Source of the DNA: Dehalococcoidia bacterium
GTDB taxonomy: Bacteria; Chloroflexota; Dehalococcoidia; Lucifugimonadales; UBA3495
Assembly: GCA_034423575.1 (NCBI GenBank)
Contig: DAOUIF010000084.1
Span: 2,040-66,039 of the forward strand
Direction of reading: 5' to 3'
Length of the DNA: 64,000 nt
Below, piece after piece: positions 20,329-39,227 of this stretch (its first letter is position 1; every line of letters begins with the position of its first letter). The notes under the pieces are model-generated. The model was not told the DNA's origin, did no database searches, and saw only the letters and a list, made by a program, of their open reading frames with translations. Position numbers and translations under genes: made by a program.

Positions 20329-20802
20329 TCACTCTTCGTGGATCTGCTGGTTGAGCCAGAGGTCGATGCCAATGATACCGATGGTTTCCATCTGGGTTTC
20401 CAGCCAGTCCACGTGCTCCTCCTCGGAGCGGATCATTTCTTGCAGGATGCCACGCGTGGTGTAGTCCTGCACCTGCTCGCAGTGGCTGATCGCGTCAACC
20501 AGTGCGCTCACGGCGTTCAACTCGGACTGCAGGTCCAGCTCCAGATCCTCCATCACCGACTCGCCGACCATCACCTGGTTGAGGCGCTGCAGATTGGGCA
20601 CACCCTCCAGGTAAAGGATGTGCTGAATGAGGTGCTGGGCATCTTCCATCTCTTCCAGACTCACGTCGCGGAACCGCTTGTAGAGGCGGTTGAATCCCCA
20701 GTTCTTGCACATCTCCGCCTGGATGAAGTACTGGTTGATGGCGGTGAGCTCTATGGTCAGCAGGTTGTTGAGGTGGTCGATAACTCCGTCTTTCGCTTTC
20801 AA
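20329..20802 (-). CDS. bfr: Bacterioferritin
   Basis: 157 aa with ELTAINQYF, E18/E51/M52/E94/E127/H130 and EEEHVDWLETQ. Position 54 is Asp rather than His. Confidence 0.93.
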   Translation of the reverse strand: MKAKDGVIDHLNNLLTIELTAINQYFIQAEMCKNWGFNRLYKRFRDVSLEEMEDAQHLIQHILYLEGVPNLQRLNQVMVGESVMEDLELDLQSELNAVSALVDAISHCEQVQDYTTRGILQEMIRSEEEHVDWLETQMETIGIIGIDLWLNQQIHEE

Positions 20803-21075
20803 TGGATATCCTTCCTCGGTTCAGACTCAATGGATACCCATGCTACCACCGTTTCGCACTCAATGAGCGGCGAGCTCCGAGGTGCATCAGGGGGAGCCGG
20901 ATTATGAATACCGACCCGAGTCGCAGCCGCTTGCGGTGGTGTCTGGAGCCGGCGAAACAAACCGTTCGATGGCAAAACCGGCTGTATCGAGCGTGAACGG
21001 CTTGGTCCGGCAGAGTGACAGGGACAACGTGGTGCGACCTTGATCGGAGGGAAACCGCACGGCCGATCTGATGAT

Positions 21076-21300
21076 CTAAGCCGCAGCCATTCCCGCACGC
21101 AATCCTCCCGCTCGCTCGGTTTTCATCAATTCCACCTGCACCAGCACGGCGACCTGCTCTATATCTTCGGCGCACCGACCGCAGCACTCGTCGTCGTCGA
21201 ACCCGAAAAACGCGCTTATCGATTCCGGCGAATCGATACCGGATCGGGCCGCGTCCACTGCTTCCGACATCGGCACTGCTTTACAAATGCACAAAAACAT
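21076..21300 (-). CDS. bfd: Bacterioferritin-associated [2Fe-2S] ferredoxin
   Basis: MFLCICKAV...CCGRC (CxC...CxxC), immediately upstream of bfr. Confidence 0.85.
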   Translation of the reverse strand: MFLCICKAVPMSEAVDAARSGIDSPESISAFFGFDDDECCGRCAEDIEQVAVLVQVELMKTERAGGLRAGMAAA

Positions 21301-21345
21301 GGGTCTCACCGATATAGGCCAGTCGTTTGCCTGCACGTGTCGGTC

Positions 21346-35965: not shown

Positions 35966-37065
35966 CCCACCCACGGATCTTTGTTCTGCTGCCGTTGCTA
36001 GCGCTGGCGCTGCTGTTGCCGGTCGCGTGCTCCAGCGCACCGCCACCTTCCAAGCAAGACGTGATTGTCAGTTTGACCGGCGATCTGATCGTGCCGCGGT
36101 TCCAAACGGTAGCTGCGGAGACCGGCCAGCTTCGGAACGCCCTCCATTCCCTGTGCGCCAATCCCTCCGGAGAAACGCTGGATGCCGCGCGGACCGCCTG
36201 GCGCGAAGCGAGGGCCCCCTGGTTGCGGTCACAGTCGATGTGGTTCGGCCCGGTGATGGACAGACGCTCCCGAATCCTGGTGGACTGGTCGCCTGTCGAC
36301 CCTGAGCGCATCGAAGGCACACTGGCCAAACGCGAGTCCGTTTCGGCTAGCGATATACGGGAGTTTTTCGGCTCGACACAGCGTGGGCTGGGAGCCATCG
36401 AATACGTGATCTTTGCCCCGGACTCGGAAGCCCTGGCGTCTCTGGGTGATCCTGCCGGGATACGTTGCCAATACCTGACCGCATTGGGCGACGTGGTGGC
36501 GGATGAGATATCGGGCGTGTTGGCGGACTGGACGGGCGACGGGTCGGCTGAAGGTGGCTATGCCGGCTATTTCAAGGGCACGGCCGGAGTCGCGCTCGTT
36601 GATCAGCAGGCGGTCGACGAAGTGGTCCGGACCTCGGTGTTCATCACCCGCAGCATCAACGACATGAGGCTGGGCAAGGCGCTGGGCGCGGATGGTGTTG
36701 AACCCGATCCGTCGGCCATCCCCGGCGGCAATGGCCACAACGCCGTCACCGACCTGCGCAACCAGGTATTGGGGATGCAGGACACGTACCTGGGCGCCGG
36801 CGTCGAGGAATCTTTGGGCATTAGCGCACTGGTGCAGGGTGTCTCAAAGGAGGCCGACGAGCGGATGCGTGGGCATTTCACCGCAGCGCTGGAGTCGATC
36901 GACGGGTTGCAGGAGCCCTTGCAAGCGACGGTCGCATCCGACCCGGTACCGGCTCGCCTCGCGCACCAGCGGATCCAGGAACTCCAGCGCACGCTCAACA
37001 CCGAGGTGGTCAGCCTCCTGGGCGTTACCGTCGGGTTCGCCGACACCGACGGCGACGGCGGTTAG
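35962..37065 (+). CDS. Imelysin-family lipoprotein (second, His-less type)
   Basis: Lipobox PVAC, WFGPV and QRGLGAIEYVIF; coupled to the di-heme gene. Confidence 0.8.
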   Translation: MTHPRIFVLLPLLALALLLPVACSSAPPPSKQDVIVSLTGDLIVPRFQTVAAETGQLRNALHSLCANPSGETLDAARTAWREARAPWLRSQSMWFGPVMDRRSRILVDWSPVDPERIEGTLAKRESVSASDIREFFGSTQRGLGAIEYVIFAPDSEALASLGDPAGIRCQYLTALGDVVADEISGVLADWTGDGSAEGGYAGYFKGTAGVALVDQQAVDEVVRTSVFITRSINDMRLGKALGADGVEPDPSAIPGGNGHNAVTDLRNQVLGMQDTYLGAGVEESLGISALVQGVSKEADERMRGHFTAALESIDGLQEPLQATVASDPVPARLAHQRIQELQRTLNTEVVSLLGVTVGFADTDGDGG

Positions 37066-38429
37066 GGACTCTCCGAGTTCTTTTTGCCGCTGACTGCCGC
37101 ATCGTCCGGCTCGTAGGGCAACACCCAACGCTTGGGCGCGATGGCGGACCGAACGGACGCCAGGTCCACGTCGGGATCGATCAGCCGAGCATTCGGTCGT
37201 CCGTTGAAGGCGACGAACGCGTCGGCGTTCACAGTCACGTGCGTAGAACCGTCTTCCGCTAAATCCCTGGCGATCATACGGGCGGTCTGGTGGATCATGT
37301 CCGGTTGGAAAGACATTCTTTCCACCTGAAGCGGGGTCAAATATTGGTCCGGTTCGATGAGCCAGGACTGGCCGGTTTCGACGTCCCGCACGCGGTATTG
37401 CACAAAGCCAACCTTTTCTGAAAGCATCACTCGCCACGCGAAGCGGTAACCTTCCTCGTTCCACCGGACATTCCCGGGATAGGCGAAGTGGCGCAGGGGC
37501 AACGCCAACTGGACCACGGCGAACATCGCCAACGCAATCAGGGCCGCCCGGGCGCGCCATGGTTGGTTGGCGGGCTGTGGGGGCTCGCCGCGAGGGCGTC
37601 GGTCGGGCATGCGTATCAGCCGCACCAGCCGTCGCGGCCAACCGGGGTCGAAAAATATCAGGGACAGCCCGATCATCAACCAGGGGAATACGCCAAGCTG
37701 CGGGAACAGAATCCAGGTCGCTAAATGGAAAGCTACGAGAGCGGCGTAGGCGAATGGCCGGGTGCGTCTCCACAACAGCGAGGGAACGATCGCCAGGTCG
37801 AACAGGGCGCCGCCCCAACTCATGACATATGCTGCCCAGGTTTCCTGAATCAGCCGGCCGATTACCGGCAAGTCGCCGTGCTGGTAGAGCCAGATGCGCA
37901 TGGGCAGCGCGTGGAACAGCCAGTCGGGGTTGATCTTGGCCAGGCCCGCGAACAAGTACACGACGGCGATCTGCCCGCGCAGCGTCCAGACAACCCAGAG
38001 CGGTGATGAACCCCGCCCAAAGGGCAGGACGGCCAGCAGCAAACTCACCAGGCTCATCAAGTAGTGATGATTGAGGTAGGTGGCGCTGTCGATCAGTTCT
38101 ACATAGGTGAACCCAACGCAGAACAGGGCAGCACACAGCCGTGGACGGAAACCCGCCGCGATGCCCACGCTCAACGCCCCTAGCGCGATGAAGTGGGCGT
38201 GCATCCCCCAGCCGGGCCACGGTCTTACCCAACCGAATCCCAGGTAGGTGAAATGGTGGTCCGGCTCCACGTAAAGCGGGCCGATCCATCCGTGAGCGAA
38301 AAAGCGGGCGACGACCAGGACGCCGAGCAGACCGAAGATGGCCCGGAAGGTTATGATCGATGCGCTATCAACCTGCTCGCTCGCGTTATATCTGGCGATT
38401 TTTAGCCAGACAGCCGGATTGATGGTCAT
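37062..38429 (-). CDS. HTTM-domain / vitamin K-dependent gamma-carboxylase-like membrane protein
   Basis: FRAIFG, YLNHHYL, YLFAGLAKINPDWL, GYRFAWRVML and MSFQPDMI. Confidence 0.85.
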   Translation of the reverse strand: MTINPAVWLKIARYNASEQVDSASIITFRAIFGLLGVLVVARFFAHGWIGPLYVEPDHHFTYLGFGWVRPWPGWGMHAHFIALGALSVGIAAGFRPRLCAALFCVGFTYVELIDSATYLNHHYLMSLVSLLLAVLPFGRGSSPLWVVWTLRGQIAVVYLFAGLAKINPDWLFHALPMRIWLYQHGDLPVIGRLIQETWAAYVMSWGGALFDLAIVPSLLWRRTRPFAYAALVAFHLATWILFPQLGVFPWLMIGLSLIFFDPGWPRRLVRLIRMPDRRPRGEPPQPANQPWRARAALIALAMFAVVQLALPLRHFAYPGNVRWNEEGYRFAWRVMLSEKVGFVQYRVRDVETGQSWLIEPDQYLTPLQVERMSFQPDMIHQTARMIARDLAEDGSTHVTVNADAFVAFNGRPNARLIDPDVDLASVRSAIAPKRWVLPYEPDDAAVSGKKNSESP

Positions 38430-38462
38430 GGCCAGCCCGATCCGGAGTGCGAATGTATCGGT

Positions 38463-39227
38463 TCAGCTGTCAGATTCGTACGGCCGAACCACGATCTGGC
38501 GCGCCACGTCATAGCCGATGGAAACCCGGTCCACCTCGGTCTCCACCTGCATCACGCCCAGGTACGGTATGGCCTCCAGCAGTGTGACTCGGTGATAGGG
38601 GACCAAACGCGCTCCGGTCAAAAACCTCAATAGCTCGGGGTTTTCCTCCGGCACCCGGTCAACCACGTACGGCGCATCGGCGACGGCGCTGTCCAGCGCC
38701 ACCGCACCTGGTGCCGATCCCGTGGCGCCGCTACCGGGAATGGGCCACCCAAAAGGCGAATGGGTCGGATTGCCCAGGCGCTCCTTTAACCTGTTCACCA
38801 GTATCTCGGACATGCCGTGCTCGAGTTGATGGGCTTCGGTGTGCGCTTCGTGAAGCTCCATCCCGAGAAGACTCACAACCAACCATTCGGCCAACCGATG
38901 GCGCTGCGCGATGTTCTCCCCCTCCAAGATGCCCCGGTCGGTCAGGCGGATCCGCTTGTCGCCGCCGACCTCGACCAGGCCTTGTTCCTGCATCCGTCGC
39001 AACATTCCGGCGACAGACGGCACGGAGGTGCCCAACCCCTCAGTGGGCGGCAACTGGCGCAACGCTTCCGCCAGTTGCGTCAGGGTGGGCGATTCGGAGC
39101 CCTCCCACATCTTGTACAGGGAGAGGAGATAGTTCTCCGTTACCGGAGACAATCGGTCGGAACTATTGGTCCTTCGATCTCGTGAGCTTGGATTGGCGTT
39201 TGATCTTCGGGAACGGGCCACAGTCAA
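38463..39227 (-). CDS. DtxR/IdeR/MntR-family metal-dependent repressor with C-terminal FeoA domain
   Basis: ENYLLSLY winged HTH, QRHRLAEWL, AHTEAHQLEH, PTHSPFGWPIP and a C-terminal SH3/FeoA-like region. Confidence 0.9.
   Translation of the reverse strand: MTVARSRRSNANPSSRDRRTNSSDRLSPVTENYLLSLYKMWEGSESPTLTQLAEALRQLPPTEGLGTSVPSVAGMLRRMQEQGLVEVGGDKRIRLTDRGILEGENIAQRHRLAEWLVVSLLGMELHEAHTEAHQLEHGMSEILVNRLKERLGNPTHSPFGWPIPGSGATGSAPGAVALDSAVADAPYVVDRVPEENPELLRFLTGARLVPYHRVTLLEAIPYLGVMQVETEVDRVSIGYDVARQIVVRPYESDS

Follow-up and report, generated by a model that had tools for sequence, protein, structure and literature searches.

An Iron-Associated Gene Neighbourhood of a Dehalococcoidia Bacterium: A Conserved Operon of FEA1-Related and FbpA-Type Lipoproteins with Glycosylation-Type Genes, and an HTTM Protein beside Imelysin Genes

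Gene Content and Conservation of the Region

A window of 64,000 nt from a Dehalococcoidia bacterium (Chloroflexota; contig DAOUIF010000084.1) was analyzed, and the present study concerns its span 20329–39227, which carries genes for putative iron-binding lipoproteins, a ferritin, a di-haem protein, and a metalloregulator. Open reading frames (ORFs) were mapped by the bias in GC content at third codon positions (the sequence is approximately 62% GC) and were then scanned against Pfam, NCBIfam, and the sequences of the Protein Data Bank (PDB). A sequence-only reading of the same DNA had listed a bfd–bfr pair, an Fe(III)-binding protein, a tandem FEA1-like protein, an imelysin–di-haem–imelysin set, an HTTM protein, and a DtxR-type repressor. 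Every one of them was found where it had been placed, and the proposed iron theme, Chloroflexota origin, and lipoprotein anchoring hold as well, including the four lipoboxes, which are real in the translations (ALMAC in the FbpA-type protein, LALAC in the FEA1-related protein, GAVAC in imelysin 1, and LPVAC in imelysin 2). The gene list was, however, incomplete. Approximately 6.3 kb, about a third of the 18.9-kb span, is occupied by a 1056-residue fusion protein, a sugar-nucleotide epimerase, and two polytopic membrane proteins denoted TM494 and TM280. A conserved RNA leader ahead of the fusion gene had likewise escaped that reading.

For synteny comparison, a scan taking one genome per species gave 78 loci that encode a FEA1-related protein, nearly all in metagenome-assembled genomes of Dehalococcoidia or Chloroflexota. 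Genes were counted over these loci by tblastn using the window proteins and flanks of ±10 kb, and this flank limit makes the counts somewhat low; the imelysin and HTTM genes of locus L079 fall just outside the flank used for L027. The FEA1-related gene was present in 78 of the 78 loci, TM494 in 75, and the FbpA-type and fusion genes in 72 each, and they follow one another on a single strand as fusion→FEA1→FbpA→TM494 almost without exception (72–75 loci). Such an order indicates that the conserved unit consists of two putative iron-binding lipoproteins within a glycosylation-type gene set, and its recurrence in dozens of species-level genomes argues that the clustering exceeds chance. The other genes were found less frequently, in varying positions: imelysin 2 in 26 loci, imelysin 1 in 25, the di-haem oxidoreductase (DHOR) in 24, HTTM in 22, bfr and bfd in 12 each, and the DtxR-like gene in nine. 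The earlier view of the 19 kb as one system did not survive this survey, since only the four genes from the fusion to TM494 are near-universal, and the genes most tightly associated with the two iron lipoproteins are those of glycosylation type, which it had passed over.

The FEA1-Related and FbpA-Type Lipoproteins

The near-universal genes form an operon on the minus strand (32558 to 24002), hereafter the core operon, in which FEA1 and FbpA, and likewise FbpA and TM494, are joined by overlapping stop and start codons. The FEA1-related gene (26709–29354) encodes a lipoprotein of 881 residues, whose lipobox precedes an Ala-rich helix and a GEDRP motif, after which a (GT)n/(HT)n linker leads to two FEA1-like domains, predicted to be all-alpha, at residues ~205–540 and ~555–881. 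The two repeats, of approximately 325 residues, are 63% identical to each other, and such a tandem was detected in 52 of 76 loci. The curated NCBIfam model NF038033, “FEA1-related lipoprotein”, matched the window protein at 1.8e-51 (175 bits), and relatives that are 41–52% identical to the window domain exceeded the Pfam Fea1 cut-off of 25 bits with scores of 95 and 51 bits, so that the earlier “FEA1-like” assignment holds. Relatives were matched with E-values reaching 1e-215, three of which also touch DUF4856. Members of the family are lipoproteins with the GEDRP motif and a Ser/Thr/Gly-rich linker preceding the domain, and most conserved positions hold Tyr, Asp, Glu, or Arg, including an R-E-x-x-E/D motif (LREAFE and LREAMD). 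In the numbering of repeat 2, Y67, E68, D163, E164, E191, R205, and Y239 are among these positions. Algal Fea1 proteins, for which the R-E-x-x-E/D motif has been discussed, bind Fe(III) and show repeated multiplication of the domain (PMC7676907). An AlphaFold2 (AF2) model of repeat 2 was all-alpha, with a predicted local distance difference test (pLDDT) score of 92.9, and gave no match among solved structures at E ≤ 0.001; neither an imelysin-like nor a transferrin-like fold is hence claimed for the domain. A literature search found no paper describing bacterial FEA1-related proteins.

The N-terminal part deserves a separate remark. Residues ~45–205 comprise an Ala/Gln-rich helical stretch, the family-wide sequence GEDRPxIxVI, and approximately 70 residues of (GT)n with HT repeats, and the His-Thr repeats might bind metal on their own or be glycosylated. 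A cupredoxin-like insert of about 130 residues, noticed by eye at the junction between linker and FEA1 domain in one relative (P0045), had no Pfam match and was dropped.

Next in the operon is the gene of a putative Fe(III)-binding lipoprotein of the FbpA/HitA type, a class II binding protein (25483–26709), in which a linker of approximately 70 residues rich in Ala, Pro, Ser, and Thr was identified. Its Pfam matches are SBP_bac_8, SBP_bac_6, SBP_bac_1, and SBP_bac_11, and it matched solved ferric binding proteins strongly (7w3w at 6e-76, HitA at 5e-61, and FbpA at ~1e-49). The Tyr pair of ferric binding proteins furnishes iron ligands, and the NxYY motif is shared in the alignment, where NHYY stands opposite NNYY.

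Compared with algal FEA1/ISIP2a (phytotransferrin, PF07692), the FEA1-related protein shares a transitive homology, tandem duplication, the R-E-x-x-E/D motif, and extracytoplasmic tethering, whereas it is bacterial and lipid-anchored. As endocytosis is not available to a bacterium, the protein must presumably hand its iron to a transporter, for which FbpABC is the candidate that we infer.

Location of the Permease

When the main ORFs of the window were scanned with Pfam, neither a TonB-dependent receptor nor a siderophore synthetase, FTR1, or ABC permease was detected, in agreement with the sequence-only reading, and likewise no DyP or ABC ATPase. That reading had treated the missing permease as a design feature, an idea to which the related loci gave no support. 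ABC ATPase-like ORFs lie near the core operon in 15 of the 78 loci, and inside it in the deepest-branching ones. In L062 and L064, the FEA1 and FbpA genes are followed by a double BPD_transp_1 permease (537–550 residues), an ATPase of the ABC_tran+TOBE_2 type, an LPG_synthase_TM–glycosyltransferase family 2 (GT2) fusion, and TM494; in L065, permease (552 residues) and ATPase-like genes occupy the downstream end, after TM494 and a flavoprotein. Because these deep-branching relatives retain FbpB and FbpC in the same operon, the permease looks relocated rather than unnecessary, and the position of both genes within the operon argues for an FbpABC-type importer of which the FEA1-related protein and FbpA are parts. 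The likeness to FbpABC/HitABC/FutABC thus comprises the match of the binding protein to solved members and the double-domain FbpB and TOBE-containing FbpC of the deep relatives. The differences are that the binding protein of the window carries a lipid anchor and a long linker, that the operon of its clade has no permease or ATPase gene, and that the operon always adds a FEA1-related lipoprotein and a glycosylation-type gene set.

Glycosylation-Type Genes of the Core Operon

The first gene of the core operon (29388–32558) encodes the 1056-residue fusion protein, which consists of a flippase-like LPG_synthase_TM domain (Pfam, 3.3e-36), further transmembrane helices, an alkaline-phosphatase (AlkP)-superfamily domain (Phosphodiest, 7.8e-24), and a GT2 polyprenyl-phosphate glycosyltransferase domain (Glycos_transf_2, 1.2e-30). 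Met45 is the likely start of the protein, since the upstream GTG of the ORF sits within a conserved RNA element. The flippase part was above the Pfam cut-off for LPG_synthase_TM, while it scored 39.6 bits against a cut-off of 43.2 for the “flippase-like domain” model TIGR00374. For the GT2 part, the best NCBIfam matches were archaeal AglJ, Dol-P-hexose transferase, PpgS, and ArnC, all under their equivalog cut-offs, and the nearest solved structures were Dol-P-Man synthase (1e-17), ArnC (8e-14), and GtrB. Judged by the class of all these best matches, the domain is of the polyprenyl-phosphate sugar synthase type.

The last gene (24002–25486) encodes TM494, a membrane protein of 494 residues and approximately 12 helices with an invariant DEPFY motif after the first transmembrane helix. 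A profile search over 1.8 billion representatives collected 3453 proteins of this family at E ≤ 0.001, and its distant members occur as fusions with LPG_synthase_TM, GT2, both of these, or an NAD-epimerase. The genes of the GT2 fusion and TM494 abut or overlap in L062, L064–L066, and L070, and a UDP-glucose dehydrogenase gene stands beside the fusion gene in L079. These domain fusions, the gene adjacency, the L079 neighbour, and the DEPFY motif fit TM494 as the third protein in a system resembling Gtr, Arn, or Ppm/Pmt. On this view, it is a candidate transferase of the GT-C type, which, outside the membrane, would draw on the polyprenyl-phosphate sugar after flipping. The idea that TM494 is the missing iron permease was rejected, as it has no family match and the domain fusions point to glycosylation rather than transport.

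An NAD-dependent NDP-sugar epimerase/dehydratase gene (23171–24076, plus strand; Pfam Epimerase, 1.5e-58) is convergent with TM494 and overlaps it, and was found beside TM494 in 51 of the 78 loci. In three deep-branching loci, a 462-residue protein resembling FAD amine oxidase and UDP-galactopyranose mutase is encoded after TM494 (L062, 19236–20624; L065, 15306–16694; L066, 15522–16910). This flavoprotein occupies the place of the epimerase, and is another sugar-nucleotide enzyme tied to the operon. The remaining gene, TM280 (22095–22829, plus strand), lies divergent from bfd–bfr and was present in 39 of the 78 loci. The window copy has no Pfam match, while 10 of 13 orthologues match DUF998 weakly (best, 8.8e-6), so we describe it as a conserved polytopic membrane protein with a weak DUF998 likeness. 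Its position varies among other lineages, where it either follows TM494 directly or is divergent from the fusion gene.

The combination of a GT2 synthase, a flippase-like domain, a large polytopic protein, and NDP-sugar enzymes is known from GtrA/GtrB/GtrV, ArnC/ArnEF/ArnT, Ppm1/Pmt, and PpgS/Rv3779. It differs from these systems in that the first two functions are fused together with an AlkP-type domain, that TM494 belongs to no recognised GT-C family, and that the set is embedded in a putative iron-uptake operon.

Imelysin, Di-Haem, and HTTM Genes

Three co-directional genes on the plus strand encode imelysin 1 (33266–34492), DHOR/DUF1111 (34508–35965), and imelysin 2 (35962–37065). Imelysin 1 is a lipoprotein of the PA4370/ICMP/LruB type (Peptidase_M75, 3.4e-66; NCBIfam LruB, 3.3e-44) that carries the GxHxxE motif as GWHAIE, while imelysin 2, a lipoprotein of the PA4372/IPPA type (Peptidase_M75, 1.4e-36), carries the His-less GxxxxE motif as GLGAIE. 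The DHOR between them (Pfam DHOR, 1.2e-100) possesses an N-terminal membrane anchor and two CxxCH motifs, CSSCH and CAACH. Both imelysin classes and the Fur-regulated imelysin–DUF1111–imelysin operons PA4370–PA4372 and VC1264–1266 have been described (PMC3143127), and the lruB operon of Leptospira shows the same pattern and is induced by iron chelation (PMC13066512), so that the earlier statement that such modules are iron-regulated elsewhere is borne out. As far as can be judged from the translations, the window trio fits this published iron-responsive class exactly in gene order and motifs. It shares with PA4370–PA4373, VC1264–1266, and lruB the gene order, the GxHxxE/GxxxxE pair, the two CxxCH of the di-haem protein, and the lipoprotein signals, but it lacks an outer membrane and a TonB receptor, its DHOR is membrane-anchored, and an HTTM gene is coupled to it. 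A comparison with EfeUOB shows that in both cases an M75 imelysin is paired with an extracytoplasmic haem redox enzyme; a similar logic, in which redox processing takes place beside a metal-binding protein, is likely. The window differs from EfeUOB in having no EfeU/FTR1, a di-haem DHOR instead of a DyP peroxidase, and imelysins without the cupredoxin domain.

The HTTM gene (37062–38429, minus strand) is convergent with imelysin 2, with a 4-nt overlap, and encodes a membrane protein of 455 residues that contains HTTM (PF05090, 1.2e-63) and the lumenal domain of vitamin K-dependent gamma-carboxylase (VKGC; VKGC_lumenal_dom, PF22777, 1.3e-48). It matched structures of human GGCX at 4e-30 over approximately 420 residues (18–439), and retains K218 (AGLAK/AGVKK aligned) and H160 (NHHYL/NHSYL aligned) of GGCX. 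Lys218 and His160 are catalytic residues of the human enzyme, and VKGC chemistry consumes O2 and quinol. Since the alignment covers both residues, a quinol- and O2-dependent activity on the outer membrane face is plausible. Bacterial homologues can be true vitamin K-dependent carboxylases, as MloH illustrates. Relative to GGCX, the window protein shares HTTM, the lumenal domain, and the two residues, but is shorter, and its context is an iron-responsive imelysin/di-haem operon, in place of a biosynthetic cluster or clotting factors.

Its placement with the imelysin/di-haem module, which the sequence-only reading had supposed, was examined on two sets of loci. In Chloroflexota, HTTM adjoins imelysin 2 in all 18 of the loci that show both, either convergently (with a 4-nt overlap) or co-directionally. 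L079 and L080 share the HTTM–imelysin arrangement, and L080 has no FEA1 operon nearby. A metagenome scan (L084–L163) collected 80 HTTM homologues, which have 38–51% identity except for one at 74%, on contigs with GC contents of 36–73%. An imelysin gene adjoins HTTM in 47 of the 60 metagenome loci with informative flanks, and 44 of these 47 form a co-directional imelysin–DHOR–imelysin–HTTM operon. The assignment of HTTM to this module is hence upheld, while a literature search found no paper that names imelysin together with HTTM or DUF4856. Possible roles of HTTM are either to modify the imelysins or DHOR, or to connect them with the quinone pool.

Bfd–Bfr Pair and DtxR-Family Regulator

The bacterioferritin gene bfr (20329–20802, minus strand) was identified by Pfam Ferritin (1.7e-31) and by matches to BfrB structures of P. 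aeruginosa (~1e-41). Alignment to BfrB showed that the haem ligand M52 is retained together with E18, E51, E94, E127, and H130, whereas the ferroxidase residue H54 is replaced by Asp (EEMEDAQ against DEMKHAD of BfrB). This substitution is kept in relatives as an EEM[EK]D motif. The bfd-like gene (21076–21297, minus strand) lies 273 nt upstream (spacer, 20803–21075) and encodes a putative [2Fe-2S] ferredoxin with a CxC...CCxxC set of cysteines in the translation, for which PF04324 gave 8.8e-5, under the Pfam cut-off. The pair bfd–bfr also occurs in 12 of the 78 loci. It resembles BfrB–Bfd of P. aeruginosa in the adjacency of the genes, in a Bfr that is closest to BfrB and carries Met52, and in a Bfd with four Cys; it differs in the Asp at His54 and the 273-nt spacer.

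The regulator gene (38463–39227, minus strand) encodes a DtxR/IdeR-family protein composed of a winged-helix domain (Fe_dep_repress, 1.2e-9), a dimerisation/metal domain (Fe_dep_repr_C, 4.2e-19), and a C-terminal FeoA/SH3-like domain (FeoA, 2.7e-8). The best solved match was IdeR of M. tuberculosis (1fx7, 1e-24, residues 26–247), and H79, E83, H98, E105, and H106 are retained. DtxR-like genes also adjoin the core operon in L048, L050, L051, L054, and L057.

RNA Leader and Operator Searches

Between the fusion and imelysin 1 genes lies an intergenic region of approximately 700 nt, whose length is kept in 19 genomes while its identity is only ~48%. The exceptions to this low conservation are a promoter, TTGACA-17-TAATTT (32766–32794, minus strand), and a two-hairpin RNA leader of ~115 nt (32612–32725, minus strand), which lies between the promoter and the fusion gene. 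Hairpin 1 showed some covariation, with compensatory changes, and in hairpin 2 an invariant stem of 12 bp carries a CCCUCCUCC loop. Over the 78 loci searched, a covariance model of the leader gave a single hit apiece in the 22 closest ones and no further hit; the window likewise holds a single copy, and each copy lies upstream of the fusion gene. An Rfam scan gave nothing in the window at gathering score. The resemblance to the “cuckoo” sRNAs with the CCUCCUCCC motif was weak (ar14, E 0.17; CcsR1, E 1.4), too weak to file the leader with them, and the element probably acts on the core operon as a leader or attenuator restricted to this clade.

The palindrome TTAGTG-NN-CACTAA was considered as a shared operator and rejected. 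It overlaps the −10 element of the fusion promoter in some relatives; the window copy, however, is degenerate, the other promoters lack it, and it occurs in the window as often as chance would give. The gap between bfd and TM280 (21298–22094) consists of approximately 800 nt without a convincing ORF, in which conservation with relatives is confined to promoter-like blocks (TTGACT ... TAGATT).

Proposed Function and Alternatives

We consider it reasonably likely that the span is an iron-homeostasis neighbourhood of four separable modules operating as follows. The first module is the core operon, with its RNA leader, fusion gene, tandem FEA1-related gene, FbpA-type gene, and TM494, alongside which the epimerase and TM280 genes are located. 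Outside the membrane, inorganic Fe(III) would be captured by its two lipoproteins, with the FEA1 domains carried on a long flexible linker as in algal FEA1/phytotransferrin, and the iron would pass to FbpA and then to an FbpBC ABC importer encoded elsewhere in the genome. The GT2 domain would produce a polyprenyl-phosphate sugar, the flippase-like domain would move it across the membrane, and TM494 would transfer it. The likeliest acceptors are the Ser/Thr/Gly/Pro/Ala-rich linkers of the lipoproteins, namely the (GT)n/(HT)n of the FEA1-related protein and the ~70-residue Ala/Pro/Ser/Thr stretch of FbpA, an envelope polymer being the alternative. In the second module, consisting of imelysin (GxHxxE)–DHOR–imelysin (GxxxxE) and HTTM, the HTTM protein probably ties the quinol pool of the membrane, together with oxygen chemistry, to the haem/imelysin pair on its outer side, which is made up of the lipoproteins and the membrane-anchored di-haem protein, and this pair would process iron redox as EfeO/EfeB do. 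The third module, Bfd–Bfr, would serve iron storage and release, Bfd being the partner that mobilises Bfr iron, and the fourth is the DtxR/IdeR-family metalloregulator, through which iron-dependent regulation may be exerted. The sequence-only reading did not recognise a described system here. Its parts are nevertheless known, as imelysin–DUF1111–imelysin is a published operon and the FEA1-related lipoprotein has its curated NCBIfam model; each module is of a known kind, and it is the architecture of the core operon and the link to HTTM that appear undescribed, and both are widely conserved.

Several findings weigh against this account. FbpBC was not located for this genome in the 64-kb window scanned, and the operon of most of the 78 loci has none. 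The window FEA1-related protein scores below the equivalog cut-off of NF038033 (250 bits) and gave no Pfam match even at E ≤ 10, thus falling under the Fea1 threshold; its homology to FEA1 is secure because relatives pass Pfam Fea1, whereas its strict membership in either model is not. More divergent FEA1-related genes stand in L082, L083, L068, and L071 without FbpA or glycosylation genes, so the family also has solo members. On the glycosylation side, the AlkP-type domain of the fusion is without an assigned role, and TM494 has no Pfam, NCBIfam, or PDB sequence match. The AF2 model of TM494 was poor (pLDDT 54) and unfit for a fold search, and its hhalign comparison with E. coli ArnT was not significant (E 0.23), though DEPFY aligns with DETRY of ArnT; for these reasons, TM494 was not taken as a recognised GT-C protein. 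The DtxR homologue lacks two ligands typical of Fe, M10 being replaced by Asn (TEMYL→TENYL) and C102 by His (EACRWEH→EAHQLEH), and therefore may sense Mn or another metal. Finally, the IdeR consensus had no match in the window within 3 mismatches, and a palindrome survey of the upstream regions of all loci gave no operator common to the gene groups or promoters.

An alternative that is unlikely but carries some weight is that the core operon serves mainly for Arn/Gtr/Ppm-Pmt-type modification of an envelope lipid or wall polymer, with the FEA1-related and FbpA lipoproteins being passengers or binders of glycans or other non-iron ligands. The link to iron would then be indirect, for example through an anionic surface polymer that concentrates metal. 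The constant elements of the loci are indeed GT2, the flippase-like domain, TM494, the epimerase, and, in L079, UDP-glucose dehydrogenase; L065, L066, and L070 have the GT2 fusion and TM494 coupled as immediate neighbours; and the FbpA homologue has weak NCBIfam matches to the phosphonate-binding PhnS. Its match to solved ferric binding proteins (6e-76), however, is far above those to other classes, and it is accompanied by FbpB and FbpC in the deep-branching loci. DtxR, Bfr, and imelysin genes recur nearby, and algal FEA1-family proteins bind Fe(III) (PMC7676907), which likewise counts against this alternative.

A bolder joint reading, which has a slim chance of being right as a whole, is that the HTTM/VKGC-like protein is a fourth subunit of imelysin–DHOR–imelysin in many bacteria, and that FEA1-related proteins are glycosylated “bacterial phytotransferrins” feeding FbpABC in marine Chloroflexota. 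Under it, HTTM may use membrane quinol and O2 to modify co-encoded extracytoplasmic proteins post-translationally, or may feed electrons to the di-haem protein; gamma-carboxylation of imelysin Glu residues, for example, may generate high-affinity metal sites. If HTTM were such a subunit, this would be the first physiological role for bacterial homologues of the vitamin K carboxylase.

It is quite improbable, in our view, that imelysin–DHOR–imelysin–HTTM acts in peroxide or oxidative stress or in quinone turnover instead of iron uptake, its adjacency to iron genes resulting from shared iron/oxidative-stress regulation. VKGC chemistry uses O2 and quinol, and DHOR is annotated as a putative peroxidase. 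The Leptospira operon has also been discussed with the peroxide response, although the same operon is induced by iron chelation (PMC13066512). Against this alternative are also the Fur regulation of the operons in Pseudomonas and Vibrio and the homology of imelysins to the iron-uptake components EfeO and EfeM (PMC3143127).

Lastly, the idea that the whole 19 kb is one integrated, permease-free surface relay for iron capture and redox, specific to a monoderm cell, in which iron is handed on by lipoproteins with no ABC or FTR1 permease, is very improbable: the iron genes are all adjacent in the window and in its approximately 20 closest genomes, and the window has four lipoproteins and no permease, yet the modules separate in relatives (imelysin/HTTM in ~24, bfr in 12, and DtxR in 9 of the 78 loci), HTTM–imelysin stands alone in L080, L062, L064, and L065 have FbpB and FbpC within the operon, a FecCD-type importer adjoins the imelysin genes in L079, and the idea leaves out the GT2 fusion and TM494, which are the best conserved partners.

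Returning to the account in four modules, we note that such Dehalococcoidia are abundant in the deep ocean and in sponges, which are iron-scarce, and that their iron acquisition is essentially unstudied. One lead is a bacterial counterpart of algal FEA1/phytotransferrin that, we infer, would work with a classical ferric ABC importer. It bears on the competition for unchelated Fe(III) in seawater and on the origin of the algal proteins. The presence of a dedicated polyprenyl-phosphate glycosylation machinery in the putative iron-uptake operon of more than 70 species further suggests an obligatory glycosylation of surface iron-binding lipoproteins in a monoderm. In addition, the occurrence of HTTM in iron-responsive imelysin/di-haem operons of very diverse bacteria opens the role of bacterial HTTM/VKGC proteins to direct experiment.

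Flanking Regions of the Window

Positions 1–16000 of the window have a GC content of 0.54–0.58, compared with ~0.63 elsewhere, and resemble a defence or mobile island. This low-GC part encodes a 794-residue E2/ThiF(E1)/JAB fusion (792–3176), a metallo-beta-lactamase, a patatin, a pentapeptide-repeat protein, a response-regulator-like protein together with a 732-residue double HATPase protein, and a C5 DNA methylase with an EndoIII Fe-S motif. No tRNA was found in the window. The flanks proper (16580–20066 and 39370–63998) are rich in MmgE/PrpD paralogues, luciferase-like monooxygenase, BBE-type FAD oxidase, amidohydrolases, enolase-superfamily enzymes, amidase, and MFS transporters, a gene content that we take to be typical of SAR202-type Dehalococcoidia.

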